Below, piece after piece: positions 1 to 25,605 of a stretch of 64,000 bases of DNA. A model generated the notes under the pieces. The model ran no database searches, had not been told where the DNA came from, and saw only the letters and a list, made by a program, of their open reading frames with translations. Within the stretch, counting starts at the first letter, position 1, and the number at the start of each line of letters is the position of its first letter. Source of the DNA: an uncultured Gammaproteobacteria bacterium (GTDB lineage: Bacteria > Patescibacteriota > Patescibacteriia > Magasanikbacterales > UBA922); the NCBI GenBank assembly GCA_964394405.1, contig CAYMVY010000001.1, positions 494,633 to 558,632 of the forward strand, written 5' to 3'. The translations under genes and the position numbers were made by a program.

Positions 1-13
1 GGCCCTCGCGGCC

Positions 14-1768
14 ATGGCGTTCTTCTACCTCGGCGGATGCGAGAGCGTCCCGCCGGAGGCGAGCAACAACAGCAACAACACCTTCACGGTGGCAAACAAC
101 GTCGACATGGATGGTGACGGTGTCGTGGAAGGTGGCGTTCCCGGTGGGGACGTCACCCTCGTGATCCGCCAGACCTGCGAGACGGCTCCGAACGAGGGAA
201 CCGAGGAGCTCTGCTTCTCGACCTTGAGCGGTGCCCTGCGCGGGACCGGCGACTGCGATGGCTACCCGAACGACGATCCGGCCGTGTGCTTCGACGGCGG
301 GCTCGACTGCTCGCAGACGAAGTACAGCGTCTGTGCGCTCTGCATCCACCCCGCGGGCGTCGGCATCAATGCCGCGACCGAGGTGTGCGATGGCGTCGAC
401 AACGACTGCGACGCGCAGGTCGACGAAGGGTTGATCTGCATCACGAGCTGCGACGACGGCGACGCGTGCACGTTCGACGGGACGCCCACGGTGAACGGGT
501 GCCCCGAGAAGACGGCCGTGCCCGGGTGCTGCCACTACGACGAGACTTCTGACACGGACGACAACGAGTGCCCGGCGACTCACGAGTGCGTGGAGAACAA
601 CACCTGCGCCCCCGTGACCTGCCAGCCGACCAACGCCTGCTTCACCGCGGCGGTGGTCAACCACGACTGCGTCCAGACCGCCAAGCCGGTCGACGACGCG
701 AACGCGTGCACCACCGACGCCTGCAATACGGCGACCGGTGCGATCACGCATACGGCACTCGCAACGATTGACGACAGCAACGCGTGTACCGTGGACGCGT
801 GCAATACGGCCACCGGCGCCGTCACGCACACCCCGGTCGCGATCGACGACATGAACTCGTGCACGACGGACGCCTGCAACACGACGAGCGGCGCCATCAC
901 CCACACCAAGATCCTGGGCTGCGCTGCCCAGTGCAATGTGGAGCACGACAACGACGGTGAGGCCACGAGCGATTGTGCGCCCTACCGCGACCCGCAGCTC
1001 TCCAACCTCTACGGCTGGGGCTGCTGGCCGACCACCATCACCACCGACCCCAACAACATGGGCACCTGCGTCGCCTACGAGGACCAGGACAACGACGAGT
1101 TCGTCGACGTGCCGGAGCGCTTCTGCGCCGATGGTATCGACGGTGATCTCGACGGCAAGACCGACGGGGCCGACAGCGACTGCCCGGTCTGCACCAACGT
1201 CGACCAGTGCGACGATGGTGACCCGTGCACGACCGATTCCTGCAGCGCCAACCTGTGCGTCTGGACGGTCATCGCGGGCTGCATCGAGTGTCAGACGAAC
1301 GCGCAGTGCCCGCTCGGGAAGACGTGCGGCGAGGACAACACCTGCCACACGACCACCCCCCCGACCACGTGCTCGCCCTCGAACCCGTGCCCGTCCGGCT
1401 ACTACTGCGCGGATGGGGTCGCCCAGTGCTTCGTCTTCGCCGACCAGCGCGGCAACACGTCGTCCTACGAATCCGGCCTCGACAGCAAGCCGGACACCAC
1501 CCCCGACAACTTCGACAACGACGGCGATGGATTCTGCGAGACGGCGCCCTGCGTCGGCTCGCTCGATCCGCGTCTCACGGTCTCGGGGTTGCAGGGTGGT
1601 GACTGCGATGACAACCCGGCTGGCCCCGGGACCTTCGTCATCAGCTGGACCGATGCCGGCGGCGTCTCCCGCTCGTTCACGACCGATGGTTCCTACAACA
1701 ACCGTCCGGGCGCGATCGACTGGGCCGACAACTACGACAACGCGTGCAAGGGCCACCCGTTCCTGTGA
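14..1768 (+). CDS. Secreted, possibly lipidated Cys/Asp-rich repeat protein. It has three tandem ~28-aa repeats (DDxNxCTxDACNTxTGAxTHT), Myxococcus-type cysteine-rich repeats (CDDGDPCTTDSC) and a TEVCDGVDNDCDAQVDEG motif (MopE-like putative metal-binding). The 5' end may be cut by the window edge.
   Basis: The ORF runs without stops from the window edge. An LGGC lipobox-like sequence lies only 8 aa from the first Met, so the true start is probably upstream. Cys spacing is strongly periodic and GC3 is very high (GAC, AAC, TGC, GGC codons), unlike the rest of the window. The C-terminal ~90 aa share motifs with the C-terminus of the 3990..6008 protein (DGDxxCETAPC, GGDCDD, DGSYxNxPG, DxNYDNxC). 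Confidence 0.6.
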   Translation: MAFFYLGGCESVPPEASNNSNNTFTVANNVDMDGDGVVEGGVPGGDVTLVIRQTCETAPNEGTEELCFSTLSGALRGTGDCDGYPNDDPAVCFDGGLDCSQTKYSVCALCIHPAGVGINAATEVCDGVDNDCDAQVDEGLICITSCDDGDACTFDGTPTVNGCPEKTAVPGCCHYDETSDTDDNECPATHECVENNTCAPVTCQPTNACFTAAVVNHDCVQTAKPVDDANACTTDACNTATGAITHTALATIDDSNACTVDACNTATGAVTHTPVAIDDMNSCTTDACNTTSGAITHTKILGCAAQCNVEHDNDGEATSDCAPYRDPQLSNLYGWGCWPTTITTDPNNMGTCVAYEDQDNDEFVDVPERFCADGIDGDLDGKTDGADSDCPVCTNVDQCDDGDPCTTDSCSANLCVWTVIAGCIECQTNAQCPLGKTCGEDNTCHTTTPPTTCSPSNPCPSGYYCADGVAQCFVFADQRGNTSSYESGLDSKPDTTPDNFDNDGDGFCETAPCVGSLDPRLTVSGLQGGDCDDNPAGPGTFVISWTDAGGVSRSFTTDGSYNNRPGAIDWADNYDNACKGHPFL

Positions 1769-2023
1769 ACGTGGTAAGGCGCATGTAGCGTCTTAACAAC
1801 AAGCGGAAGTTCCGCATTACATATCTGAACTCGTCATGCGGCACGAGAACAGATCACGGATCTGGTCGAAGGATCAGAACACAACTAGCCGCACCAAGGA
1901 GAAATATAGAAGGGAGAGAAGACAAGTATGATCTCGGCAGCAATGCCCCGATCGTCGAGTCTCTCTCCCGGTCTCAATTCTATTCCTCATCATGATGATG
2001 GGGGAGAGATAGAGAAGAAATTC

Positions 2024-2043
2024 AAAACTCAAAGTTCAAAACG
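2024..2043 (-). repeat. Third, solitary copy of the 20-bp end motif of the four-helix-bundle cassette (CGTTTTGAACTTTGAGTTTT).
   Basis: It is the exact 20-bp reverse complement of 11693-11712. It is also present with one mismatch at 6242-6260. Confidence 0.6.
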
Positions 2044-2437
2044 CAAAAGTAAAAAGAAAAATTTCTGAAATGTAGATAATAGATTTCAGATTCCAACATA
2101 TCTTTATCAAGTAAGACTGAACACTCAAAGTAATACATATTAGTGAGATACGCGTGAAGTTGTATTGGTAGAGAGATGTTGGAAACAAAGTAAAAAGAAG
2201 AGAAAAAAGAAAATACAAAACTCAATGCCGGTGGTAATGATAAGGCGGAAAGTAAATTACAATTCAATACACACCGCGTGGAATACGCGCGGGGAGAAAG
2301 CTCGCGCCTTGCGAGTTTTTTCAATAAACCGTAGAATGTACCCTTGCTAGTGCAATCAAAAACTTCTACTACCACGGGAATATAGGGAACTGTATGTCAG
2401 TGGCGGGAGAGGTTTCGGAAAAAATCTCACTGCACAG

Positions 2438-3613
2438 ATGGAGCAACTCATGCCATTTCGCGTCCTTTTGATTTCGTTCGCCCTGCTCTTCGGAGCGTGC
2501 GATAATACGATCGCGGGCTCTGTCCGCCAGATCGACCACACCACTCCCACCATCCTGAATATCGCGGACACGATCGAGCATAATACCTCGGTCGAAGACG
2601 CGGAGGATACCCACGTCCACATGGACGAGACCTCGGAAGACACGCGTGTCGAGGAAACTCAAGACACGGTCTCGACCGCAGAGACTGAGGTTGTGACTGA
2701 CACGATTGTCCCGGACACTGCTCCGGAGACGATCGAGGAAGTCGATAGTACAGACGACACCATCAATACAGAGGACACGGTCACCGTGGACACACGGGAT
2801 ACCCTGTCTCAGCCCGAGGTCACTCTAGCCGAGTGCACCCTCGACGCCGACTGCGTTGATGAAGACGAGCTGTGTTTCGAGGGCGAGTGTGTGACTGCGC
2901 ATGCTCTCTGCATGGCACACACCTCTGACCACATCTACCCTGAGCTCGAACTCTGCTGTGTCAAACAGCATCCGGTGTCTCAGGGAGAGGGACTCTGCTC
3001 CTACAGCATGGTCACGGATGAAATAGTGTTCTACTCATGTGTCGAACAAGGGACGAGCCTCGTAATCGAGGAAGTCTCGTGCGTCGATCACGACGAGGAC
3101 ACGAGTGATTCGTGTGATCAGTCGTCTGGGTGTGAAAACACCCCGATCGATTCAGACGACGACCTGTTCTATGACTCAGAGGACGACTGCCCCTTCGAAG
3201 CAGAGGTCTACGACTTCTACGACGACTGGGATGGCTGTCCCGAGGATGACCAGGACCACGACGGCTGGGCCCCACCAGAAGACTGCGACGACGACTCGAC
3301 CATAGACGGGCCTCTGGCCACGTACTGCGAGGACGAGTTCGGCTTCTACGTGATGATCAACACGTACGTCGACGACCTGTTCTACCCAGACTGTCTCGAG
3401 GACTCGTCACTGATCTTCCTGACCGATGGGTCGTTCTTCAATGGAGCGCACATCGCGGGCCAGGACTACCCGGGCGATGAGTTCGACAACGACTGCGACG
3501 GCCAGGCTGATGAAGCAGGTGAGACCGGGCTTATCGACTGCTGGTGGTACGAACTCGGTGAGTTCGTCTCACTGGTCGAGTGCCTGTGGATGACCGAGGA
3601 ATTGGCGGATTAG
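2438..3613 (+). CDS. Acidic secreted lipoprotein. It has a signal peptide with an LFGAC lipobox-like cysteine, a long Thr/Asp/Glu-rich linker, Cys-rich modules, thrombospondin-type-3-like Asp-rich calcium-binding motifs (DDDLFYDSEDDCPF, DDWDGCPEDDQDHDGW) and a GDEFDNDCDGQADE motif.
   Basis: The ORF is complete. GC3-rich codon usage contrasts with the AT-rich flanks, and the signal peptide is followed directly by Cys. Confidence 0.55.
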   Translation: MEQLMPFRVLLISFALLFGACDNTIAGSVRQIDHTTPTILNIADTIEHNTSVEDAEDTHVHMDETSEDTRVEETQDTVSTAETEVVTDTIVPDTAPETIEEVDSTDDTINTEDTVTVDTRDTLSQPEVTLAECTLDADCVDEDELCFEGECVTAHALCMAHTSDHIYPELELCCVKQHPVSQGEGLCSYSMVTDEIVFYSCVEQGTSLVIEEVSCVDHDEDTSDSCDQSSGCENTPIDSDDDLFYDSEDDCPFEAEVYDFYDDWDGCPEDDQDHDGWAPPEDCDDDSTIDGPLATYCEDEFGFYVMINTYVDDLFYPDCLEDSSLIFLTDGSFFNGAHIAGQDYPGDEFDNDCDGQADEAGETGLIDCWWYELGEFVSLVECLWMTEELAD

Positions 3614-3989
3614 CCCGCCCTATCCTCCACTTCGTGGGTGGGTCAGTGCATGCAATGGTTCGTAATTACGATGAGCCTGTATGTTCTTGACCCACCCGCG
3701 ACTACACAACTCCCTGTTGACTAATAGAGGTTTATATGTTACTGTTTGCAGTTGCGTAAGGAAATTCGCATCTTGTACGTCTTATAGCGGCGTGTAGTAT
3801 GCGGCGCTTGACTTAGGTCGAGCCCAAGGTTCTTTTACATATAGTGTTTTGTGAAAATTTGTATAGTCAAGAAACGGTGGATGTGTTTGTGCTCTCAACA
3901 AAGGCACGAATGCACCCCCGTTTCTTGACTGCGGTAGGTTCCGCAGCACAAGGATGGGTTCACGGCACATTCCCAGGAGGGAAACCGCC

Positions 3990-6008
3990 ATCATGTTGCT
4001 TCTGAAGAAGATCCACGAACGCTCCATCATCTTGATGGGGGTGTTCGCCCTGCTCGTGGGGTTCACGAGCGCCTGCATCGATGACGGGTCGCGAGACCCG
4101 GTCGGGTTCACCCAGGGTGCCAGTAACGACGGCGACAACGACGGCGTGCCGGACAACCCGGACAACTGCCCCGGGGTCTACAACCCGGGTCAGGAGAACA
4201 ACGACGGCGACTACGAGCCGTACGATGGGCAGATGGGCGACGCCTGCGACGACGACGACGACAACGACGGCGTCGAGGACGTCGACGACAACTGCCAGTT
4301 CGTCTGGAACGAAGACCAGCTGAACACCGACTGGGAGCTCTCCGAGGAGGAGAACTCGACGGTGGTCGGCGACAACATGGGCGACGCATGCGACGACGAC
4401 GACGACAACGACGACGTCTGCGACATGGGGGTCATGCTCTACAACGCGGACGTGTTGCCGAAGTCGGAGTGCGAGGGCTGGGACAACTGCCAGTTCACGT
4501 ACAACCCCGACCAGGAGAACCTGGACCAGGACTACTGGGGCGACGCCTGCGACGATGACGGCGACTGGGACGGTGTCTTCAATGACGAGGACAACTGCCC
4601 CGAGACCCAGAACCGATTCCAGGAAGACCTCGATCAGGACGGTATGGGCGACGCCTGCGATCCAGACGACGACAACGACGGCGCCTGCGATCCTCACCAT
4701 GAGGCGCGGCTCCCCTCGGCTCCGTGGCTTGAGGAATCACCGGATCAGTGCGAGGGCTGGGACAACTGCCCCGACCTCGAAAACCCTGATCAGTCTGATT
4801 GGGATGGCGACGGCAAGGGGGACTGGTGCGACGGCGATTGCCGTGGTGATGGGTTCTTCGAGGCCTACTACCCCGAGGACTTCCCGAACCTCTACTGCGA
4901 CGGCGACGACAACTGCACCCTCGACTCCGAGGAGTGCGACGACGAGAACAACTGCACCCTCGACTACTGGTGCAGCGATGGTGAAGGCGGCGAGTGCACG
5001 CACGAGAAGGACTACGAGAAGGGGGAGTGCATCGAGTGGTGCAACAACAGCGGACAGGGGCAGTGCAACGATCACGACCCCTGCACCGATGACGACTGCG
5101 AGGGCAACACGTGCGAGCATCAGCTCGACATCACCAACCTGGGCTGCGAGGAGCCGGGGTGCGACAACAACAACGACTGCGAGGACAACAACCCCTGCAC
5201 GGACGACGTCTGCAACCAGGAGACCGGCCAGTGCAGTCACAACAACGACAACACGAACGTCTGCGCCGACGCCGACCTCTGTGACGGCACCGAGACCTGC
5301 GTCTCGGGCGTCTGCACGGATCAGGAGGACCTCGTCTGCAACGACAGCAACCCCTGCACCGACGACACGTGCGTCCCGGCCACGGGTTGCTCCTACAGCA
5401 ACGACAACACGAACGTCTGCGCCGACGCCGACCTCTGTGACGGCACCGAGACCTGCGTCTCGGGCGTCTGCACGGATCAGGAGGACCTCGTCTGCAACGA
5501 CAGCAACCCCTGCACCGACGACACGTGCGTCCCGGCCACGGGTTGCTCCTACAGCAACGACAACACGAATGTGTGTACGGACGGCAACTCCTGCACAACC
5601 GACACCTGCTCGAGCGGTCAGTGCGTGGGCACGCCGATCCAGGAGTGTGGCGTCGTGGATCTCCACGGCGACACCCCGCCTGGTGTGGGTGGTGGAAACG
5701 GCGGACCGAATGCGGACGGAACCGATGACGCGAAGGATGACGACGGCGACTGCTATTGCGAGACCGCGCCGTGCACGTCCTCGGTGAACTCGACTTGCGG
5801 GCCCCTCCTCGGAGGCGACTGCGACGATGATCCGGACGACTCGGCCATGACGGTGAGGAATCCGGGTCCGAATCAGTTCTCGTCGGACGGCAGCTACTAC
5901 AACAACCCGGGTACGGACGGTCAGCAACCGAACGGGAACGAGTGGTGGGACGACAACTACGACAACGACTGCGACAACGTGGTCGACGACGGGTTCCCCG
6001 CGAACTGA
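3990..6008 (+). CDS. Secreted, likely lipoprotein, with N-terminal thrombospondin type-3 (TSP3) calcium-binding repeats followed by multiple Myxococcus-type cysteine-rich repeats. The C-terminal domain is shared with the 14..1768 protein.
   Basis: The TSP3 consensus DxDxDGxxDxxDNCPxxxNxxQxDxDxDGxGDxCD is matched several times (DNDGVPDNPDNCPGVYNPGQENNDGDYEPYDGQMGDACDDDDDNDGVEDVDDNCQF...). Repeated NPCTDDxC / CxDGxExC modules follow. The start at 3990 is preferred because a signal peptide (MLLLKKIHERSIILMGVFALLVGFTSAC) sits behind an AGGAGG ribosome-binding site; the alternative ATG is 3954. GC3 is very high. Confidence 0.65.
   Translation: MMLLLKKIHERSIILMGVFALLVGFTSACIDDGSRDPVGFTQGASNDGDNDGVPDNPDNCPGVYNPGQENNDGDYEPYDGQMGDACDDDDDNDGVEDVDDNCQFVWNEDQLNTDWELSEEENSTVVGDNMGDACDDDDDNDDVCDMGVMLYNADVLPKSECEGWDNCQFTYNPDQENLDQDYWGDACDDDGDWDGVFNDEDNCPETQNRFQEDLDQDGMGDACDPDDDNDGACDPHHEARLPSAPWLEESPDQCEGWDNCPDLENPDQSDWDGDGKGDWCDGDCRGDGFFEAYYPEDFPNLYCDGDDNCTLDSEECDDENNCTLDYWCSDGEGGECTHEKDYEKGECIEWCNNSGQGQCNDHDPCTDDDCEGNTCEHQLDITNLGCEEPGCDNNNDCEDNNPCTDDVCNQETGQCSHNNDNTNVCADADLCDGTETCVSGVCTDQEDLVCNDSNPCTDDTCVPATGCSYSNDNTNVCADADLCDGTETCVSGVCTDQEDLVCNDSNPCTDDTCVPATGCSYSNDNTNVCTDGNSCTTDTCSSGQCVGTPIQECGVVDLHGDTPPGVGGGNGGPNADGTDDAKDDDGDCYCETAPCTSSVNSTCGPLLGGDCDDDPDDSAMTVRNPGPNQFSSDGSYYNNPGTDGQQPNGNEWWDDNYDNDCDNVVDDGFPAN
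5244..5555 (+). repeat. Perfect in-frame 156-bp tandem duplication (2 copies) inside the 3990..6008 CDS. It encodes NDNTNVCADADLCDGTETCVSGVCTDQEDLVCNDSNPCTDDTCVPATGCSYS twice and is followed by a diverged partial third unit.
   Basis: Direct comparison shows 5244-5399 identical to 5400-5555. The third unit diverges from about 5569 (GAATGTGTGTACGG against GAACGTCTGCGCCG). Confidence 0.9.
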
Positions 6009-6177
6009 ACGCCGGTCACGAGCCGGATACGAAAAGGGTATAGCTGAGCCCTGAACACGGAACGAGCCAGGTGGCTCGAACAGCAACCCGGGAGTGGGGC
6101 GGCGCAATTCATGCGCTGCCTCCTCCCGACTTCTACAGTGTTCTCATGTATATGAGAGTAGTGAAGAAGTTACAATA

Positions 6178-6214
6178 AAAAAACATCCTATCATGCATCG
6201 GGATGTTTTTTAAA
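6178..6214. terminator. Bidirectional rho-independent terminator between the converging genes 3990..6008 (+) and 6425..7876 (-).
   Basis: AAAAAAACATCC-loop-GGATGTTTTTT: a 6-7 bp stem with an A-run on one side and a T-run on the other. Confidence 0.6.
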
Positions 6215-6221
6215 TTGAAAA

Positions 6222-6392
6222 AATTAGTATAACTCAAAACGTAAAACTCAAAGTTCAAAATTATAACTCAAATCTCAAAACTTTTTTCAAATCATTTTTT
6301 GAATCTAGTTTAGTCATAATCCCTCCCTGATTAAGTTTTAAATTTTACGTTATAGTTTTACGTTTTGACATTTGAGTTTTGAGTTATGCTAA
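6222..6392 (-). mobile_element. MITE-like, internally deleted, inverted copy of the four-helix-bundle gene cassette found at 11236..11722. It has ~18-bp terminal inverted repeats (ATTAGTATAACTCAAAAC ... GTTTTGAGTTATGCTAAT) and retains the promoter/RBS, the first 9 codons and the last few codons of the cargo gene.
   Basis: The reverse complement of 6290-6395 matches 11236-11344 with 2 mismatches. The reverse complement of 6222-6289 matches the 3' end and downstream flank of the gene (11670-11712). About 325 bp of ORF interior is missing, with the junction at GATTTGAAA|AAAGTTTTGAG. Confidence 0.8.
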
Positions 6393-6424
6393 TCTTCCCC
6401 TCCTTTTACTTTTTATTTTGCAAA

Positions 6425-7876
6425 TTACAAATCCTTCTCCGAATTTCTAATAAAATTAAACGTTTCTTTCTTCTCTCGATACAACACGCCAAACATAGCA
6501 CCCCACCACACCCACGTCATCCACATGACCGGTGTATGATGAAGCATGTTGTCGCCAAGACTCATGACACCAAAAGCAATAATCCAGCCCAGGAGATGTA
6601 TCGAGAGCGCGTGCGTTCCCATCCACACCTGGTCGAGATAAAATTTTCCTGCATTCCATACGAGTAACCACAGGAAGAGGAGATAGGTGAAAAGACCAAT
6701 CGTACCAAGCTCAATTGCAAATCGGAGATAATCATTGTGTGATTCAGTACTGTCGTCCCGGATATGTAGAGGGCTCTGTTCGTTTTCCCATACACGGGGG
6801 AAACTACCGTACCCGTATCCATACCACGGCCGCGCGAGAAATATAGGCACTGACTCAGAGATCAGATTTTGTCGCCATGAAATAGAGTCAGCTTCCTCAT
6901 CACGTGTAGTCAATCGTTGAATGAGCTGAATCCGCTCGAGATTGAAGTTGGTATATTTTTCGAGTACCTGATTGAGTGGGGAAAATATGAGGTAGAGTAT
7001 GAGCGTACCGAGTGCCAATATTCCCAAAAATTTTCTGAATTTTGCGAGACCAATCACTACGAGAAAAATGCCGAGTCCCACCCATGCACCACGAGTGAAG
7101 GTACAGGCAAGGAGAATCAAGAGAAAGAGGGTAATCAGATGTGCATATAATTTTTTGCGTGTGAGATAGAATGTTCGATCAATATATGCATGGTGAATAT
7201 GAATGAAGAGAAGAGAGACAATAAAAAAAGCAAATACATTGGGATGCGCAAAGGTGCCAAAAATGCGATCGCGGATATCAAAGGTGGTAATTCCTTTACC
7301 AAAAAATAATTGGAATATGCCAAATGCAATTGGGATAATACTCCCAACTACAATTGAAAGCGTGAGTTCGCGGAGACTGATATATTTTTTTCCAATAAAA
7401 ATGAATCCGAGAACAAAGAGGATGATAAGCACGAGGAATTTGACGCTCTCGAGTGCAGTCTCCATGGGAACAATGCTGACCATAGTACTCCCGAACATGA
7501 GTACGAGGAGGAGCATTGCAATTTTTAGTCCAGGAATTCGGTATGATCGTTGCAAGTGTGTCGCGAGCATGAATATTCCCCATAGCGCGATAATCATCGA
7601 GAATCCGGCATTGATATTCATCTGAACGCCTGCAACTCCTCCGAGTGACACATCTCGCCAAGTATCGAGAGTGGGGCGGAGTGCCAGGAAAACAAGTAAT
7701 AATTTTTCTCGCAAAAATATATGCCCAAAATACAATAGAGCGATCATGAGAAGTATGAGATCGATTTCGATAATCGGATTCACGAGTATGACCAGAAGAA
7801 AAATCACAGCGACAATCGAGTGGACTCGATTGCGTTGTGGTAGGGAAGACTGCATTGTTTTGAAATATTGGTACAT
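6425..7876 (-). CDS. O-antigen ligase / Wzy_C family polytopic membrane protein (WaaL-like).
   Basis: It has about 10 transmembrane segments and the characteristic periplasmic-loop motifs TRGAW ... GYGYGSF ... ESHNDYLRFAIELGTIGL (the HN-x-YL-x4-E-x-G signature). Confidence 0.8.
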   Translation of the reverse strand: MYQYFKTMQSSLPQRNRVHSIVAVIFLLVILVNPIIEIDLILLMIALLYFGHIFLREKLLLVFLALRPTLDTWRDVSLGGVAGVQMNINAGFSMIIALWGIFMLATHLQRSYRIPGLKIAMLLLVLMFGSTMVSIVPMETALESVKFLVLIILFVLGFIFIGKKYISLRELTLSIVVGSIIPIAFGIFQLFFGKGITTFDIRDRIFGTFAHPNVFAFFIVSLLFIHIHHAYIDRTFYLTRKKLYAHLITLFLLILLACTFTRGAWVGLGIFLVVIGLAKFRKFLGILALGTLILYLIFSPLNQVLEKYTNFNLERIQLIQRLTTRDEEADSISWRQNLISESVPIFLARPWYGYGYGSFPRVWENEQSPLHIRDDSTESHNDYLRFAIELGTIGLFTYLLFLWLLVWNAGKFYLDQVWMGTHALSIHLLGWIIAFGVMSLGDNMLHHTPVMWMTWVWWGAMFGVLYREKKETFNFIRNSEKDL

Positions 7877-7930
7877 GGTATACTACTGCACGAATACACA
7901 CGTGTGTAGTATATCCTACTTTTCCAACAG

Positions 7931-9166
7931 ATGACAATTCTTCAGGCACACAAATATTATTGGCCCCGCGATGGCGCATCCAATTACATGCTTTCACTCT
8001 CGAAATTACTTGAAGAGAGAGGTGAAACCGTAATTCCCTTTGCGATGCAGGGCAGAGAGAATCTTCCAACACCATATGGAGAATTTTTTGTACCAGAAAT
8101 GAATCTGAGAGATCCTGAAAAAGCGAATGTAGGGGAAAAAATACGCTACACACTCCGCATGTTCTATTCGATCGAAGCAAAAAAAAGAATGCGGAAATTA
8201 TTGGACACACATCCCGTGGATATTGCGCATATTCACAATATTTATCATCATATTTCACCTTCGATTTTATCAGAACTCAAGCGACGAAAAATTCCGATTG
8301 TGATGACGCTTCATGATTACAAATTGTTGGCGCCAAATTACACCATGTTTCATCATGGCGCAGTACACGAAGAAGACGCGCGCGGATGGTATCTCTCCTG
8401 TGTCAAGAATAAATGTATGAAAGATTCTCGTGCGCAGAGCGCGATTGTGGTTGCAGAGATGATTTGGCATCACAAAATTATGAAATATTATGAGCGCTAT
8501 GTAGACACCTTTATCGCGCCAAGCAGATTTATGAGAGATATCTGTATAAAATTTGGATGGGATGAACAGAAGTTTGTTCATATTCCACATCCTGCATTTG
8601 TTGAGTCCAAGCATCATGTCTCAAAAAAGGATAAAGAGTACGTGGCATATGTAGGTAGGTTATCAGAAGAAAAAGGTCTTCTCGTGCTACTGCGAGCTGC
8701 AAGCTACACCCCAGAGATCCCCTATGTGATTGTAGGCGAGGGTCCTCTTGAGAATAGAATGAGAGGAATGATTGCGAGTCGTAAGCTGAAGAATGTGTGG
8801 TGTGTGGGGTTCAAAACCGGCGCTGAATTGGAAACAATTATTAGCGAAGCACGAGTGTTGGTGCTCCCCTCAATCTGGTACGAGAATTATCCACTAAGCA
8901 TTCTCGAGGCAAAGGCTGCAGGAAATATTGTTATTGGAAGTAATATTGGGGGTATAGGAGAAATGCTCCCGCCTGAACTGGTAGTAGAAGCAGGGAATGA
9001 AGAAATGCTCGCGCATACTATACAGGAGTGGTATCACAAAAAAGCAAGTGAAAGAAAAAAAATGGGAGCACAGTTGCAAGAGGAAGTGAAAAAAGAAAAT
9101 GCACCCCTCGCTCATGTGCGCGCAATCGAGAATGTGTACGCGGCACTCACCAAACACACCACATAG
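7931..9166 (+). CDS. GT4 family glycosyltransferase (GT-B fold).
   Basis: The C-terminal GT4 signature is present: EEKGLLVLL ... VLPSIWYENYPLSILEAKAAGNIVIGSNIGGIGE (E-x7-E). Confidence 0.8.
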   Translation: MTILQAHKYYWPRDGASNYMLSLSKLLEERGETVIPFAMQGRENLPTPYGEFFVPEMNLRDPEKANVGEKIRYTLRMFYSIEAKKRMRKLLDTHPVDIAHIHNIYHHISPSILSELKRRKIPIVMTLHDYKLLAPNYTMFHHGAVHEEDARGWYLSCVKNKCMKDSRAQSAIVVAEMIWHHKIMKYYERYVDTFIAPSRFMRDICIKFGWDEQKFVHIPHPAFVESKHHVSKKDKEYVAYVGRLSEEKGLLVLLRAASYTPEIPYVIVGEGPLENRMRGMIASRKLKNVWCVGFKTGAELETIISEARVLVLPSIWYENYPLSILEAKAAGNIVIGSNIGGIGEMLPPELVVEAGNEEMLAHTIQEWYHKKASERKKMGAQLQEEVKKENAPLAHVRAIENVYAALTKHTT

Positions 9167-9180
9167 TGGATTCGTCTGTT

Positions 9181-11205
9181 ATGATTCATACCCTATACAA
9201 AAAATGTATATATCTCGGAGTAGTGCTCATGTTGCTCTCTGGATTGGTGTATCCGCGTAGTGCAGAGGCGTCGATTAATTCGCATACGTCACCGAGAATC
9301 GCAAATTATTTTTTGAAATGGGAGTTGACGGATATAGAAGCGACTGAACTTTCAAAATGGGATGTAGTTATATTGGATATGGAAGTACAATTCCGCAGTG
9401 CAGCAGCTCTCGCAAAATTAAAAAAATTGAATCCAGAAATCGTCCTTCTTGTGTATCTAACCCCCCAAGAAATCGCTACCAATGCAGCCACTGGGTGGAG
9501 TACTGCTAGACGCAAACTCGCTGCAGGAATTCCAGATGAGTGGTATCTCAAAAATAGTAGAGGAGAACGACTCTCCTGGTGGTCAGGAACGTATCTACTC
9601 AATGTGACTGATAGTGCGCCTGAACGCGGAGGAATGAGGCTGAATGAGTACATACCGCGATTTGTAGTGAATGAATTGTTATCTTCTGGATATTGGGACG
9701 GAGTGTATTATGATAATAGCTGGGATACTATTGCCTATTTTGCGGGAAATGATATTGATTTGAATCTCGATCGTTCACCAGATACCGCAACCGAGACCAA
9801 ATGGCAGGAGGGTATGAAAGAATTGTATGCAACGACCCGGAATTTGAGCGGGAGTGATATTATTATTGTGGGGAACAATCACAATACTGCATATCTCTCT
9901 GATCTCAATGGAAAACTACTCGAAAATTTTCCGAACGGTAATTGGGTGTCGACCATGAATACATTGAGAGCATTTTCGACTAGTCGAGCGGTGGTACCTC
10001 GTGTACCAATAGTCAATGCAAATACGGCAAATACCGGAATCCCTGATTATCGCTCCATGCGATATGGTTTGACCTCAGCACTCCTCGAGAATGCATATTT
10101 TGCCTATGACCACGGGGATCAGGATCATGGACAGACATGGTGGTACGATGAATACGAGGTATCGCTCGGGAATCCGATAACTGTAGCGCAATCACAGACC
10201 GGCAAGACTGAGTATGCGCCAGACGTGTGGTCGCGTAATTTTGAAAATGGAATTTCGATTGTGAATAGTACCAATGAGGCGCGTACCATTCCGCTTGACG
10301 GAGAGTATGAGCATATTCATGGTGTCCAGGACACGGCAGTGAATGATGGATCCATTGTCTCAGAAGTCACCCTTGCGCCAAAAGATGGACTCATATTATT
10401 GAAAACATTCGAGACACTGAAGAATGTCATTTTTACCAATGGTTTTTTTGCGCGATTTTTCAAGCCCACCGGTGAACGAGCACGCAATGGATTATTTGTT
10501 TTTGAAGAAGAGCAGAAAGGTGGCGCACAAATTGCGCATATTGATTTGAATTTTAATAATCAAGAAGATTTGGTCGTGGTGAGTGGTAACAAGATTCAGG
10601 GATGGAGAGATGATGGACAAATTTTGTTTAAGATTTACCCCTATGGTGCCAACTATACGGGATCGCTACATGTCGCGGTAGGTGATCTTGATAATGATGG
10701 CTTCTATGAAATATACAGTGCTCCGAGCGCTGGTTTTCGAGAACCCATTCGAAGGTATGATAGAAATGGAGCGACTATTGGAGGAGATCTTTTCCCCTAT
10801 GGTTCAGCATACAAAGGTGGATACCATATGGCCCTAACCAAAGCATCGGAGGCAGCTCCTGCGCGACTGATTGTGGGATCAGGGGTGGGGGTGAGACCAA
10901 CGATCACCGTCTATGGTCCTGACTTCAAAAAATTACTCGCCTTTAGCGCATTTGAATCTACATTCATGGGCGGGGTAAGTGTTGCTGCGGGAGATGTCGA
11001 GGGAGATGGAACACAGGAAATTATTGCAGGGAAAGGAAGTAATGGAGCGCCTACGGTAAAAGTATTTACCCTTCAGGGAAAAGAAAAATATCAATCCTTC
11101 AATGCGTATACTACGATGTTTAAACCTGGTATTGAAGTTCGTACATTGGATATTGATTTTGATGGGAAAGATGAGATTGTGACCCTATCGGATGGAGCGT
11201 TATAA
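9181..11205 (+). CDS. Secreted protein. The N-terminal domain is a putative TIM-barrel glycoside-hydrolase-like domain (GH114/GHL-type; low certainty). The C-terminal domain is an FG-GAP/VCBS-like beta-propeller.
   Basis: A signal peptide is present. The C-terminus has repeated GDLDNDGFYE and GDVEGDGTQEII motifs typical of FG-GAP repeats. The N-terminal WDVVILDME region resembles the polysaccharide-hydrolase-like families. An alternative GTG start lies at 9166. Confidence 0.5.
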   Translation: MIHTLYKKCIYLGVVLMLLSGLVYPRSAEASINSHTSPRIANYFLKWELTDIEATELSKWDVVILDMEVQFRSAAALAKLKKLNPEIVLLVYLTPQEIATNAATGWSTARRKLAAGIPDEWYLKNSRGERLSWWSGTYLLNVTDSAPERGGMRLNEYIPRFVVNELLSSGYWDGVYYDNSWDTIAYFAGNDIDLNLDRSPDTATETKWQEGMKELYATTRNLSGSDIIIVGNNHNTAYLSDLNGKLLENFPNGNWVSTMNTLRAFSTSRAVVPRVPIVNANTANTGIPDYRSMRYGLTSALLENAYFAYDHGDQDHGQTWWYDEYEVSLGNPITVAQSQTGKTEYAPDVWSRNFENGISIVNSTNEARTIPLDGEYEHIHGVQDTAVNDGSIVSEVTLAPKDGLILLKTFETLKNVIFTNGFFARFFKPTGERARNGLFVFEEEQKGGAQIAHIDLNFNNQEDLVVVSGNKIQGWRDDGQILFKIYPYGANYTGSLHVAVGDLDNDGFYEIYSAPSAGFREPIRRYDRNGATIGGDLFPYGSAYKGGYHMALTKASEAAPARLIVGSGVGVRPTITVYGPDFKKLLAFSAFESTFMGGVSVAAGDVEGDGTQEIIAGKGSNGAPTVKVFTLQGKEKYQSFNAYTTMFKPGIEVRTLDIDFDGKDEIVTLSDGAL

Positions 11206-11235
11206 AGTAAAAAGTAAAAGGGAAAAAGGTAAAAG

Positions 11236-11722
11236 ATTAGTATAACTCAAAACTCAAATGTCAAAACGTAAAACTATAACGTAAAATTTAAAACTTAATC
11301 AGGGAGGGATTATGGCTAAACTAGATTCAAAAAATGATTTGAAAGTACGTGCGTATTTTCTATCAATACAGACCATACGTTTTTTAGAGATAGTGCCTGA
11401 AAAACGTGTGTATTGGACAATTGGAGATCAGCTACTTAGATCAGTAACGTCAATTGGGGCAAATATTGTCGAAGCAAAATCATCAGCCTCACGAAAAGAG
11501 TTTATCAAGTTCTATCAAATTTCCCTTAAGTCAGCGAATGAGAGTAAATACTGGCTCGGATTATTACGTGATACTACAAATATGGATAAAGACTTAGACA
11601 ATAACATACTGAATGAGGTTGTAGAAGTTGCAAATATGCTTGGATCAAGTATCATTACCATGAAGAATAAAAAGTTTTGAGATTTGAGTTATCGTTTTGA
11701 ACTTTGAGTTTTAAGTTTTGAG
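11236..11722 (+). mobile_element. Small terminal-inverted-repeat-bounded cassette carrying a four-helix-bundle protein gene. It is the full-length counterpart of the MITE-like element at 6222..6392.
   Basis: The left terminal inverted repeat ATTAGTATAACTCAAAAC (11236-11253) is identical to the element end at 6222. Both ends are built from degenerate ACTCAAA / GTTCAAAACG units. The right end (…CGTTTTGAACTTTGAGTTTTAAGTTTTGAG) is a partly degenerate inverted copy. Confidence 0.65.
11312..11680 (+). CDS. Four-helix-bundle protein (TIGR02436 / 23S rRNA intervening-sequence protein family, PF05635).
   Basis: The family signature is present: GDQLLRSVTSIGANIVEA ... SRKEFIKFYQISLKSANESKYWLGLL. The protein is 122 aa and is preceded by a strong RBS (AGGGAGGG). 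Confidence 0.8.
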   Translation: MAKLDSKNDLKVRAYFLSIQTIRFLEIVPEKRVYWTIGDQLLRSVTSIGANIVEAKSSASRKEFIKFYQISLKSANESKYWLGLLRDTTNMDKDLDNNILNEVVEVANMLGSSIITMKNKKF

Positions 11723-11732
11723 ATGGGTCTCT

Positions 11733-13580
11733 ATGCAATACGTTGAAAAGCATCTAACCAAACACCATTTATTGAACGCTCCCCACAAGTGGTTTTTCGC
11801 GTTCTTAGCATCGCCCATACATTTTGCTGAAATGCACTATAAGAATCGATATCATCTGCAGTTTTCTCATGCACGGAAATTATTTTTGTTCGACATGTCT
11901 CTCCTCGCGACACTGGCTGTGATTGCTGGAGCATTCTTATTCTGGAGTACCTATAATCCCACAGTGACAGATCTGGTATATCTCACGGTCACTCCTTCGC
12001 AATCAAGAATTTTGAGTGGAGAGTATGTGACATACACCGTAGGATATGAGAATAAAAGTGATGTGCGACTTTCGAATGCATCCATAACTCTAGACATTCC
12101 TGAAGGATTTATTCTTGATAAAACCGAGCCTGCGACATTTGATCGCTCAAATAATACGATGAAACTCGGTTCAATTGGTTCAGGGGAAAAGGGGAGTGTC
12201 TCGATCTCAGGCTGGTTCTATGGAACACCAGAAGTAGAAGATCATATCCATGCGCATATTAACTATGCCCAAGAAGGGAAAACGCGTACTGAGAATAAAA
12301 TGAGCCCGCATATCATATTTTTACGTGGGTCATTATTGGAGTCTTCGGTTGAATTGCAGGAACAGATTATCGAAAATTCACGCATTCCATTCACAATAAC
12401 GTTAGTCAATAATGGTTCGGAGCCTCTGCTCAATATTGTATTTGATCTAAGTCCAGTCAATACAATTGGAGTACTAGAGAGTGTGACAACTACGAGAGGA
12501 TTGGTGAATGGTGGAATGTGGAATTTATCAGGTCTGCTTCCTGATGAGTCTGTAGAGCTCGAGGGAATCATTGTGATTAGAGGAGGGTTGGGAGAAAATA
12601 CGTATTCGATAAAATTAGCACCAGCACTCTCAATTCGTGGCAAGACAATCACCCAATCAACGGTAACAAAATCTGTACAAGTCGCACGTCCAGAAGCTCG
12701 GGTTAGTGCTCGATGGGATAATGATTCCGCCATGTTAAAACCTAGCGAAACTGGTAGGTTGACTGCGACGATTACCAATACCGGGTCAATCACACTCGAA
12801 CAGGGAGTGATTGAAATTCCGCTTCCCAAAACAATTGTAAATCTGCAGGAGGCTGCGAGAGTGAATGCAGGGACAGTGAGTCAAAATACACTGATTCTTT
12901 CTTCCGCAAAACACCCAGCACTTAATTCGATCTCTCCGGGAGAGTCCCGAACAATTGCACTATTGGTTCCTATTCTTGCAATACCTGATGGGGGAACCGA
13001 CACTGTGCTCCAACCAACAGTTCGCTTCCATGCAGGAGTCGCGATTGATCCAAATACAAGGGTTGAGGCTACAGGGAAAACAGGGCAGCTCAAAGTAGGG
13101 ACACAGGTAGTCTTTACTGGAGAAATTCGGTACTATACTGCCGAGGGCGATCAGCTCGGGCGAGGACCGCTACCTCCACAGGTTGGAAAAGAGACCAAGT
13201 ACGCCGCCCTATTTTCGATTCGCAATACCACGAGCAATGTTACGGGGGGAATACTCAGCGTAAAACTTGGAAGCCGTGCAGTGTGGACGGGTAAGACGAG
13301 CGTTAGTCAGGGGTCTGCTCCTACCTATAACCCCTCGACCCGTATAGTACGGTGGAATGTGGGAACCATTCCAGCGCATGCGACAGTAGGTCTATTTTTT
13401 GAAGTTGGACTGACTCCAGAGGACGAAGAAGTGGGGACCACGCCAGTATTGGTGCTAAGCGCGGAAATTACTGGTACAGATGCCTATCTAGGGTATATGG
13501 TGAGCCGTTCGATAGGCGCTCTTGACACCTCCCTCGGCACAGATCTGATTGGGAGGACAAAAGGGGTGACTGTACGTTGA
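11733..13580 (+). CDS. Membrane-anchored surface protein with repeated DUF11-type (conserved repeat domain) beta-sandwich domains.
   Basis: An N-terminal transmembrane helix (SLLATLAVIAGAFLFW) is followed by repeated motifs such as TITNTGS and TLVNNGSEPL. The start is uncertain: the track uses TTG at 11718, and ATGs lie at 11733 and 11835. Confidence 0.55.
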   Translation: MQYVEKHLTKHHLLNAPHKWFFAFLASPIHFAEMHYKNRYHLQFSHARKLFLFDMSLLATLAVIAGAFLFWSTYNPTVTDLVYLTVTPSQSRILSGEYVTYTVGYENKSDVRLSNASITLDIPEGFILDKTEPATFDRSNNTMKLGSIGSGEKGSVSISGWFYGTPEVEDHIHAHINYAQEGKTRTENKMSPHIIFLRGSLLESSVELQEQIIENSRIPFTITLVNNGSEPLLNIVFDLSPVNTIGVLESVTTTRGLVNGGMWNLSGLLPDESVELEGIIVIRGGLGENTYSIKLAPALSIRGKTITQSTVTKSVQVARPEARVSARWDNDSAMLKPSETGRLTATITNTGSITLEQGVIEIPLPKTIVNLQEAARVNAGTVSQNTLILSSAKHPALNSISPGESRTIALLVPILAIPDGGTDTVLQPTVRFHAGVAIDPNTRVEATGKTGQLKVGTQVVFTGEIRYYTAEGDQLGRGPLPPQVGKETKYAALFSIRNTTSNVTGGILSVKLGSRAVWTGKTSVSQGSAPTYNPSTRIVRWNVGTIPAHATVGLFFEVGLTPEDEEVGTTPVLVLSAEITGTDAYLGYMVSRSIGALDTSLGTDLIGRTKGVTVR

Positions 13581-23526: not shown

Positions 23527-25605
23527 ATGGAAAGAAAAAATTTCTTCAATTATTCTAGTATCATAAAGATTTTGATTAGCGCTTTGTTCGTCGCACCTCT
23601 AATTCTTTTGAATGATTTTATCTTTCCATTTATTGTACCAAAAATTTTGTTTCTTCGGTCGCTCATCATGATCATATTGGGCGCATACATTTTATTACTT
23701 TTCTCTGATTTCCAGAGATTTAGACCAAAATTTTCTTTCCTCACTATAAGCATTCTCTTATTTTGGCTAAGTTTGGCCATCTCAACATTCGCAGGGGTTG
23801 ATTGGTATCGGAGCTTCTGGGACAATCACGAGCGTATGCTCGGGCTCTTCACCATCACGCACTATGTGATCCTCTATATGGTTGCGTCAGTAGTCATTAC
23901 GACTGAGCGCGATTGGACATTTATCTTTCGGTCAATTTTGATTTTTGGATCACTCGTCATGCTTCTTGGTATGTGGCAAAAATTTGTAGATCCTCAGGCA
24001 CTTTTGAATCGAGGATCAGGGCGTGTGTCCGCAACACTTGGGAACGCTATCTATTATAGTGGATATGGATTATTCCTCCTGTTTCTCGGTGCGATAGAAT
24101 TTTATCGTGAACGGCGGGTGAGTGCGGTATGGAAATATATCGCTCTCGCAACAGCGCTATTTGGGTTCATTGGAATTTTTTTAGGAGGTACTCGAGGTAG
24201 TTTGCTAGGGGGTATGGTAGGTGTTGGTGTACTAGTCACCTGCTATGGATTTTTCTCAAAAACTCGGAATCAGATTACTCGACTGGCGCGATATGCCGCG
24301 ATTGTTGGTGTGGTGGTACTGGGGCTCCTATTCGCATTTCGGACTACCCCGTTTGTATCAGAATTACCTCTACTTGGGTCACTTCTCAATACGTCTTTTT
24401 CTGGTGGTACTGCTGGAACTCGTGTTATGGCATGGGGTATTGCAATTGATGCGTGGAAAGAAAAACCAATCTTTGGTTGGGGGCCTAATAATTTTTACTA
24501 TGCGTTCAATCAATATTACAATCCTCAATTTTTGGAACATGGTTGGAGTGAAACATGGTTCGATAATGCGCATAGTGTAATTTTTAATACACTGACAGTA
24601 CAAGGTGCGTTTGGAATCATCACATATCTCCTCATTTATATCACAGCGGTCAGTATATTATTCATAGGAGTGCGACGTGGACAGATCAATCAACACATTG
24701 GTTTTTTATCAATTGCATTTCTCATTGCGCATTTGGTGGGACTGGTAACAGTGTTCGAGAATCCGACCTCGTATCTCTACTTTTTTGTTTTCTTGGGATT
24801 CGTGGCATACATCGTGAGTCCAGTGAAAGTATTGCATGCGAAAGAATCTACTGAGAGCAATACTTCAAAGAAAGCAGTAATACAATCTGCTCGAACAGGG
24901 CAGTCATCTGTCGGATTATCAGTAATTGTATGGACTTTTATCATACTGTTCATATATATCACTGATATTTCACCTGCTCGCGCGAATAAAGCAGTCGTAG
25001 TGTCTATGCAGAAGTTATATGCGGGTATTGCAGACGAGACTATTTTTGATGAACCATTATCTTTCTCCACACCGCATATCGACGATATACGGAATGATTT
25101 GGCTCGGGTAATTTTTGAAAGACTACCTCAGATGGCGCAAGAAGGTAAGACAGCAGAGATAGGGTTATTATTTGACCGAACAGTACAAGAACTCAAAAAA
25201 AATCAGGCATTGCATCCACTAGATGTTCGCGTACATTTCACTTTATCACAGTATTATAATGTAGGGTATCAGCTGACCAAAAATAGGGACCTCGTGATTC
25301 AGAGTGAAGTCGAGATACGACGAGCGCTGGGACTATCACCCAAGCGTCAACAATTCGAGTATACGCTTGCCTATAATTTGGTAGATCAGGCGAGGCACAA
25401 AGAAGCTGAAGAAATATTAAGAAAATCAATTGAAAACAATCCAAAAATCAGTGAGGGTTGGTGGAGACTAGCGGTCATTTATGGCTATGAGACGAGTACG
25501 AGCTCTGCTCAGGCATTGGTCGATGAGGCTATTGGCAAGGGAGTGGTATTCGATGAGAATGGGAAGAATATTTTGAGACAGCTCGGTATTAAACTCCCCG
25601 AGTGA
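23527..25605 (+). CDS. Wzy_C / O-antigen-ligase-family polytopic membrane protein fused to a C-terminal TPR domain. It is a candidate ligase or O-oligosaccharyltransferase.
   Basis: Ligase-family motifs are present (GGTRGSLLG ... RVMAWGIAIDAWKEKPIFGWGPNNF ... AHSVIFNTLTVQGAFG). C-terminal TPR repeats follow (EEILRKSIENNPKISEGWWRLAVIYG). Confidence 0.65.
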   Translation: MERKNFFNYSSIIKILISALFVAPLILLNDFIFPFIVPKILFLRSLIMIILGAYILLLFSDFQRFRPKFSFLTISILLFWLSLAISTFAGVDWYRSFWDNHERMLGLFTITHYVILYMVASVVITTERDWTFIFRSILIFGSLVMLLGMWQKFVDPQALLNRGSGRVSATLGNAIYYSGYGLFLLFLGAIEFYRERRVSAVWKYIALATALFGFIGIFLGGTRGSLLGGMVGVGVLVTCYGFFSKTRNQITRLARYAAIVGVVVLGLLFAFRTTPFVSELPLLGSLLNTSFSGGTAGTRVMAWGIAIDAWKEKPIFGWGPNNFYYAFNQYYNPQFLEHGWSETWFDNAHSVIFNTLTVQGAFGIITYLLIYITAVSILFIGVRRGQINQHIGFLSIAFLIAHLVGLVTVFENPTSYLYFFVFLGFVAYIVSPVKVLHAKESTESNTSKKAVIQSARTGQSSVGLSVIVWTFIILFIYITDISPARANKAVVVSMQKLYAGIADETIFDEPLSFSTPHIDDIRNDLARVIFERLPQMAQEGKTAEIGLLFDRTVQELKKNQALHPLDVRVHFTLSQYYNVGYQLTKNRDLVIQSEVEIRRALGLSPKRQQFEYTLAYNLVDQARHKEAEEILRKSIENNPKISEGWWRLAVIYGYETSTSSAQALVDEAIGKGVVFDENGKNILRQLGIKLPE

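Follow-up and report, generated by a model that had tools for sequence, protein, structure and literature searches.

A predicted bacterial lipoprotein with thrombospondin type-3 repeats, CTDC-type cysteine modules and a rare C-terminal module, encoded in a GC-rich island beside a surface-polysaccharide cluster

In the solved structures of thrombospondins and COMP (PDB codes 3fby, 1yo8, 2rhp and 1ux6), the thrombospondin type-3 (TSP3) repeats (PF02412) wrap many Ca2+ ions. Among myxobacterial proteins, MtsC and TraB possess TSP3 repeats and TraA possesses Cys-rich repeats with a polymorphic region; these are secreted cell-surface proteins that take part in cell–cell cohesion or recognition (PMC6372800, PMC11980579). 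Repeats of comparable composition are encoded at the left end of a 64,000-nucleotide stretch of contig CAYMVY010000001.1 (positions 494,633 to 558,632, forward strand; hereafter, the window) from an uncultured bacterium placed by GTDB in the Magasanikbacterales, where three neighbouring genes, designated here A, B and C, form a GC-rich island. The present study deals mainly with gene C, which had previously been described on the basis of its sequence and open reading frames (ORFs) only. Gene C probably encodes a secreted, N-terminally lipid-anchored, Ca2+-stabilised and disulfide-rich surface lipoprotein with a mosaic middle part, an adhesin- or receptor-like member of a paralogous family. The protein itself is a new variant on known module types; the truly unusual feature of the locus is the conserved GC-rich island.

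Protein C resembles thrombospondins and COMP in containing five DxDxDGxxDxxDNCPxxxNxxQxDxDxDGxGDxCD repeats with paired cysteines, but, unlike them, it is a putative bacterial lipoprotein, the repeats are located at its N-terminal end, and the coiled-coil, the EGF domains and the lectin-like C-terminal domain are missing. Profile searches clearly indicate the nature of the repeats: the Pfam TSP_3 model matched four stretches of protein C with 48.3 bits (cutoff 25), a phmmer search of the PDB with the TSP3 part returned COMP (3fby, E = 1.4e-34), thrombospondin-2 (E = 1e-27) and also thrombospondin-1, and a pattern search located five DNC[PQ]xxxNxxQ...GDxCD units at residues ~44–290. This agrees with the preliminary description, where the TSP3 consensus was recognised several times in the N-terminal third. 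By analogy with the solved homologues, the Asp-rich loops of these repeats would coordinate Ca2+.

The TSP3 part is followed, up to approximately residue 553, by five N.CT.D.C modules, two LCDGTETC modules and two degenerate copies, so that the earlier count of at least eight Cys modules was about right, while the attribution of these modules to the Myxococcus type was not. The NCBIfam model TIGR02232 matched neither the whole proteins A, B and C at E ≤ 0.1 nor their isolated Cys regions at E ≤ 10; instead, the Cys modules of proteins C (38.5 bits) and A (65.3 bits) passed the gathering threshold of the Dictyostelium CTDC repeat (Dicty_CTDC, PF00526, cutoff 27), and protein B remained below it (16.2 bits). 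Profile searches were, therefore, positive both for TSP_3 and for a Cys-repeat family. TSP3-like repeats had been suggested for gene B as well, but no significant Pfam TSP_3 match was obtained with its product. Unlike the Dictyostelium repeats, those considered here stand in a bacterial context and are interleaved with CDGTETC-type modules.

By analogy, myxobacterial MtsC and TraA/TraB appear to be the closest characterised counterparts of protein C, but it does not belong to their families: the MtsC model NF047638 yielded 92.4 bits against an equivalog cutoff of 350 and covered the TSP3 part only, and protein C contains no MYXO-CTERM tag, PA14-like domain, OmpA domain or TIGR02232 repeats, an N-terminal lipid anchor being predicted instead. 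PF11617 lipoproteins, abundant in Myxococcota (P0048, P0081, P0109), show the same motif order as the C-terminal module of the family considered below, and P0048, P0081, P0089 and P0109, like protein C, combine a lipobox with TSP3 repeats and with MopE-type units at the end.

The coordinates of the features discussed are given in Table 1. The ORF containing gene C spans positions 3954–6008 (684 codons). The coding gene proposed earlier at 3990–6008 is present, with its start moved by three bases; ATG 3993 is the most likely true start, because it is preceded by a Shine-Dalgarno-like sequence at a distance of 11 nt, because P0001 (600 aa, Logan contig L001), the sole close homologue of the gene C product, begins at the equivalent methionine, and because a 2-nt indel in L001 puts ATG 3954 out of frame. 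The deduced protein is composed of 19% Asp, 10% Gly, 10% Asn and 9% Cys. Its signal peptide is almost the same in P0001 and P0243. With the PROSITE PS51257-type rule ([^DERK](6)-[LIVMFWSTAG](2)-[LIVMFYSTAGCQ]-[AGS]-C near the N-terminus), a lipobox was found in proteins C (FALLVGFTSAC) and B (LISFALLFGAC), and 16 of the 21 listed family proteins agree with the rule; the lipoprotein assignment made previously holds in this respect, and lipidation itself is predicted from the motif. A signal peptidase II gene (lspA, Peptidase_A8) was seen near a family member in one relative only, L083.

Table 1. Features of the GC-rich island and its right border (positions counted from the first nucleotide of the window)
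Feature	Position	Strand	Characteristics and evidence
Gene A, truncated by the window edge	2..1768	+	Lipobox-like signal, sub-threshold MopE-like N-terminal motif, Dicty_CTDC repeats, C-terminal module
Subtype-1 C-terminal module of gene A, 4 Cys	1487..1765	+	DNDGDGFCETAPC...GGDCDDNP...FTTDGSYNNRPG...DNYDNAC; 118 bits in profile search
AT-rich dispersed repeat, left copy	2019..2064	.	Inverted partner at 6340-6385; the pair brackets genes B and C
Gene B	2438..3613	+	391 aa; lipobox LLFGAC, acidic Thr/Glu-rich linker, Cys-rich middle, subtype-2 C-terminal module with CxW...C.W tail
Subtype-2 C-terminal module of gene B	3236..3592	+	Tail DE.G...C.W...G...V.C.W; profile score (see text)
Shine-Dalgarno-like AGGAGGG	3975..3981	+	11 nt before ATG 3993; also kept in L001
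Gene C, predicted lipoprotein under study	3993..6008	+	671 aa; ORF list, Pfam, comparison with L001, motif pattern
Predicted signal peptide with lipobox, gene C	3993..4076	+	...FALLVGFTSAC; Cys28 is the predicted lipid carrier; agrees with PS51257-type rule
Five TSP3 repeats, gene C	4122..4862	+	Pfam TSP_3, COMP and thrombospondin-2 matches, motif positions
Cys-rich stretch with ~8 CTDC-type modules, gene C	4863..5651	+	Dicty_CTDC match; most strain-variable part
Tandem duplication, gene C	5239..5569	+	156 nt x 2.1 copies, 99% identity
Gly-rich linker and subtype-1 C-terminal module, gene C, 6 Cys	5652..6005	+	DDDGDCYCETAPC...C...GGDCDDDP...FSSDGSYYNNPG...DNYDNDCDN
Conserved structured non-coding element, 3' of gene C stop	6030..6175	+	72% identity to L086 over 156 nt
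Terminator-like hairpin followed by T run	6177..6212	+	From sequence
AT-rich hairpin from the same dispersed repeat	6220..6396	.	Right edge of the GC-rich block

A comparison of gene C with its counterpart in L001 indicated that the ends and flanks of the gene are 92–100% identical, blocks within the TSP3 region 77–82% identical and the Cys-repeat region only 46–69% identical, with gain and loss of modules. The 156-nt duplication, which corresponds to a double Cys module of 52 aa, is recent; the L001 homologue does not contain it and has another set of modules in its place. P0243, the product of a gene at the syntenic locus L086, corresponds to protein C in its signal peptide and end module, but its middle part is wholly different. 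The pattern is that of a surface protein which is polymorphic and recombining but whose ends are conserved.

The C-terminal module, ~100–125 aa long and rich in Asp and Cys, is common to all three proteins. The C-termini of A and C, proposed previously to be homologous, are 39% identical over 114 aa (BLASTP with composition adjustment, E = 2e-14), and the last 39 aa of B were aligned to C with E = 6e-5. A profile of the second subtype of the module, built from P0254, P0264, P0265 and P0249 with B left out, matched B with 50 bits (E = 1.6e-17), the maximum for 500 shuffled sequences being 2.6 bits, and gave 46 and 40 bits with A and C. These comparisons support the earlier suggestion of a small family, gene B included, that is characterised by a shared C-terminal module; A, B and C encode modular, secreted proteins rich in Asp and Cys. 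When a profile made from the modules of A, C and P0001 was used in an exhaustive HMMER search of 1.84 billion proteins, only 43 representatives were obtained at E ≤ 1e-3, about 15 of which span the entire module, nearly always at the extreme C-terminus. The family consensus can be written as VD.RG.T..G.SGANGGP..DGT.DN.DDDGDG[FY]CE.APC.GS.NP.L....L.GGDCDD.P, followed by an insert of 0–30 aa, which carries F.TDGS..N.PG, and by N[HN]PGA..W..DN[FY]DN[DN]C[DN]G; in the second subtype, an additional tail, DE.G.D.CTW...G..V.C.W, is present. In some distant relatives (P0258, P0262 and L088, positions 3143–3673), a short CE..PC/MopE-type unit is present together with a tail at the C-terminus, "GGGC + hydrophobic stretch + RRR", that resembles a MYXO-CTERM tag; nothing like this tail is found in proteins A, B and C.

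A direct Pfam scan of the C-termini of A, B and C returned no family at E ≤ 10, PF11617 included; this model fails because of the insert. Several observations connect the module with PF11617 units nonetheless. The members lacking the insert (P0256, P0261, P0268) display the canonical GGDCDD-x(6-8)-[HN]PGA-...-DNFDNDCDG motif with its spacing; the weaker matches P0259 and P0267 contain the short CE.APC form in tandem, beside ordinary DxDGDGY...GGDCDD...NPGAxExCNGxDDDCDG units; and hhalign aligned the family profile with ten ordinary PF11617 units, all of them above the Pfam cutoff, with a probability of 95.7% (E = 9.5e-9), the alignment crossing the insert and linking the second half of the module. 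Given these similarities, the module, to judge from motif and profile comparisons, derives from the PF11617 "putative metal-binding" unit, of which it is a rare form with an insertion, distinguished from ordinary units by a single terminal copy, the CE.APC motif, the preceding SGANGGP..DGT and the insert. Its cysteines covary: in 22 of 22 cases, a module with DGD[C] has precisely one additional Cys in the following loop, and 14 of the 15 modules with DGD[G] have none. Because of this paired covariation, the cysteines are considered structural, and a disulfide between C587 and C602, without a counterpart in the module of protein A, is predicted for protein C. To the poorly understood bacterial surface proteins of the TSP3/MopE type, protein C adds a rare and definable C-terminal module, for which the consensus is clean and the disulfides have been mapped by prediction.

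Taken in order, a lipobox signal, five TSP3 repeats, about eight disulfide-knotted CTDC modules, a Gly-rich linker and the terminal module would make protein C a Ca2+-stiffened, disulfide-cross-linked stalk anchored to the membrane through its lipid. The fast-changing mosaic middle may be the bearer of binding specificity, the conserved terminal module would represent a distal structural or interaction domain rather than a sorting tag, and the probable role of the protein would be adhesion or cell-surface recognition. A number of points weigh against this interpretation. The adhesive role is suggested by the architecture and by analogy with the myxobacterial surface proteins, and surface exposure of the gene C product is presumed. 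The product of gene A (FFYLGGC) misses the strict lipobox rule by one residue, at position -4. The connection with PF11617 relies on profile–profile and family-level evidence, the direct scan being negative; a search of the PDB sequences with the module profile found no relative at E ≤ 10, and the AlphaFold 2 model of the module, made from an alignment of 14 sequences, had a predicted local distance difference test score (pLDDT) of 52 and a predicted template modelling score (pTM) of 0.40. The foreign codon usage described below could also mean that the genes are poorly expressed passengers.

Two other roles may be considered for the terminal module. In the preliminary description it was named as a possible sorting or anchoring domain, and it might indeed be recognised by a dedicated partner for export, cell-wall glycan attachment or glycosylation, since it occupies the extreme C-terminus in most members and has been conserved in proteins that otherwise vary. 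O-antigen-ligase-like (Wzy_C) enzymes include protein O-oligosaccharyltransferases, and a convergent Wzy_C gene and glycosyltransferase genes are the immediate neighbours of a family member in three genomes that have diverged deeply, so that the adjoining Wzy_C protein would be one candidate partner; the conserved adjacency could hint at glycosylation or glycan attachment, but it could also be plain synteny. MYXO-CTERM-type, PEP-CTERM and LPXTG tags consist of a signature motif, a hydrophobic helix and a basic tail (PMC11980579), whereas protein C has no hydrophobic helix and no basic tail at its C-terminus, ending with the acidic, hydrophilic ...DNDCDNVVDDGFPAN, and no MYXO-CTERM, PEP-CTERM or other tag model of Pfam and NCBIfam was matched by A, B or C. 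Moreover, P0249 and P0265 contain internal or duplicated copies of the module, tandem repeats of its short form are present in P0259 and P0267, and the N-terminal lipobox already supplies an anchor. Because the tripartite features are missing and internal or duplicated copies exist, a sorting signal seems unlikely, and recognition by a dedicated partner is likewise judged unlikely. It appears quite improbable, too, that the module binds copper or another transition metal in the manner of MopE/CorA and that the family scavenges or buffers metal at the cell surface. The profile–profile similarity to the Pfam "Cu-binding_MopE" units and a sub-threshold PF11617 match at residues 120–138 of protein A are in favour of such a site, and the metal-binding type of module suggested before was, in this sense, sought in the right neighbourhood. 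On the other hand, the Cys residues covary as pairs, as in disulfides rather than free ligands, the conserved Asp, Asn and Gly of the DxDxDG type suit Ca2+, and the family alignment contains no conserved His or Trp. A Ca2+-stabilised, disulfide-rich lipoprotein with a structural or interaction domain at its end, therefore, remains the preferred interpretation.

The island itself differs strikingly from its surroundings. Beyond the first 6.2 kb, the window is occupied by a 58-kb surface-polysaccharide cluster of ~40% GC, which encodes Wzy_C proteins, many glycosyltransferases, sugar-modifying enzymes and Asn-synthase-like amidotransferases. The GC content at third codon positions (GC3) is 0.90 in gene A, 0.73 in B and 0.88 in C, against 0.38–0.46 in the neighbouring genes, and the shift to G/C-ending codons extends to all codon families, those of Lys and Glu and the four-fold ones among them; the GC content of the spacers between the three genes falls to 25–50%. 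Neither the codon anomaly nor its conservation in related genomes was mentioned in the preliminary description. Similar islands are present in two other genomes. In L086 (JGI Ga0074438_1000350), the island (5927–13431) consists of five GC-rich genes (GC3 0.70–0.89), three of them with the end module, followed by a Wzy_C gene on the minus strand and by GT4, GHL15/FG-GAP and DUF11 genes with a GC3 of 0.32–0.40; in L097 (JGI Ga0268731_1000826, 1–5477), at least four GC-rich genes for lipoprotein-like products, two with the module, stand beside the same host genes as in L086 and the window. The adjacency of the Wzy_C gene on the gene C side is kept in both. The host orthologues of these three genomes share only 42–63% protein identity, and the divergence between the island DNA of the window and that of L086 equals the divergence of the host DNA.

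The codon usage, donor-like in every codon family, invites the explanation that A, B and C arrived recently from a GC-rich donor, e.g., a member of Myxococcota, as foreign passengers with little or no function in the host, or that they result from a chimeric assembly. The repeat types are commonest in Myxococcota, Myxococcota-like and other GC-rich metagenome-assembled genomes, and one family member (L096) lies on a natively 70% GC contig, which is in line with such an origin. At the same time, the ORFs are intact and equipped with ribosome-binding sites and lipoboxes, and such islands are found at an equivalent position even in genomes as distant as those compared above; a single recent transfer is contradicted by the island DNA being as diverged as the host DNA. 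No donor closer than ~45% identity was found: a scan of GTDB genomes with protein C revealed repeat-level matches only, of at most 49% identity, which extended up to residue ~555 and left the end module uncovered. Of nine loci from a metagenome scan, only L087 was a true family member, the remaining loci encoding canonical MopE-type tandem-repeat proteins on contigs of 57–73% GC and on one contig of 44% GC. An assembly chimera was ruled out, as the same GC-rich/AT-rich junction is repeated in independent assemblies (L001, L086, L097 and L098). All in all, the origin of the genes as recent passengers or an artefact looks very improbable.

Three deeply diverged AT-rich genomes with GC3-rich lipoprotein genes, separated by AT-rich spacers, at the same locus are not predicted by simple amelioration theory. 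Either the GC-rich codons are maintained over the long term, through selection or because hyper-recombining genes undergo biased gene conversion, or a single hotspot has repeatedly received genes from GC-rich donors. The GC3 of the family members, ranging from 0.52 in L083 to 0.68–0.91 elsewhere, would fit turnover with partial amelioration. Perhaps, rather than being the residue of a single transfer, the preference for G/C-ending codons belongs permanently to a cassette-like locus for adhesins. In this AT-rich lineage, possibly of small genome and episymbiotic habit, the genes would be either renewed repeatedly from GC-rich partners, whose surface modules they would mimic in order to bind them, or kept GC-rich by strong biased gene conversion tied to constant recombination; this broader proposal is a doubtful one. 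If it were true, the locus would represent a clear departure from amelioration in nature and would mark genes for cell–cell contact. Should the pattern reflect repeated capture of adhesins from partners or a GC bias driven by recombination, the locus would be a concrete place to test either idea and would point to candidate contact proteins of an uncultured lineage. A phage or other mobile origin was also considered and rejected, as no relatives were found among viral contigs, and the same is true of integron-type attC-like cassettes, since the sequences 3' of the three genes could not be aligned to each other and no integrase was noted in the window.

Genes A and B accompany gene C upstream. 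The full-length protein A corresponds to P0241 (593 aa), which is the same as the window translation throughout and has the additional N-terminal residues MTKFS, so that the complete N-terminus reads MTKFSALAAMAFFYLGGC. Residues ~34–149 of protein A (window positions 14–450), with the pattern DMDGDG...CETAPN...GDCDGYPNDDP...HPAG...DGVDNDCDAQVDEG, resemble a second, degenerate copy of the end module. Such an N-terminal copy was considered and set aside in view of the weak similarity (BLASTP E = 0.015; domain E = 7e-4).

The polysaccharide cluster contains two Wzy_C genes, at 6425–7876 on the minus strand, convergent with gene C, and at 23527–25605 on the plus strand. Two Asn-synthase-like amidotransferases are encoded at 37174–39021 and 46703–48583, and the second yielded 595 bits with the XrtA/PEP-CTERM amidotransferase model (cutoff 817); neither an exosortase nor a PEP-CTERM protein turned up among the window genes scanned.

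The non-coding element located downstream of the gene C stop codon has equivalents in L086 (13436–13580) and L001 (1955–2100) and is kept among genomes whose coding DNA is only ~66% identical. Alignments revealed four hairpins with three compensatory pairs; the element contains CCUCCUCCC and an invariant 24-mer, CCTCCTCCCGACTTCTACAGTGTT, at 6119–6142, and a search of Rfam gave no match. Further to the right, the GC content drops to 0.255 (6201–6400), where a hairpin made of the AT-rich dispersed repeat AAACTCAAAGTTCAAAA marks the border of the island. This repeat is genome-specific, being absent from every other locus compared, and occurs in seven copies in the window against 0.5 expected; further copies are located at 11250–11266 and 11675–11711, and inverted copies bracket not only genes B and C, but also an ORF of 122 aa (11312..11680).

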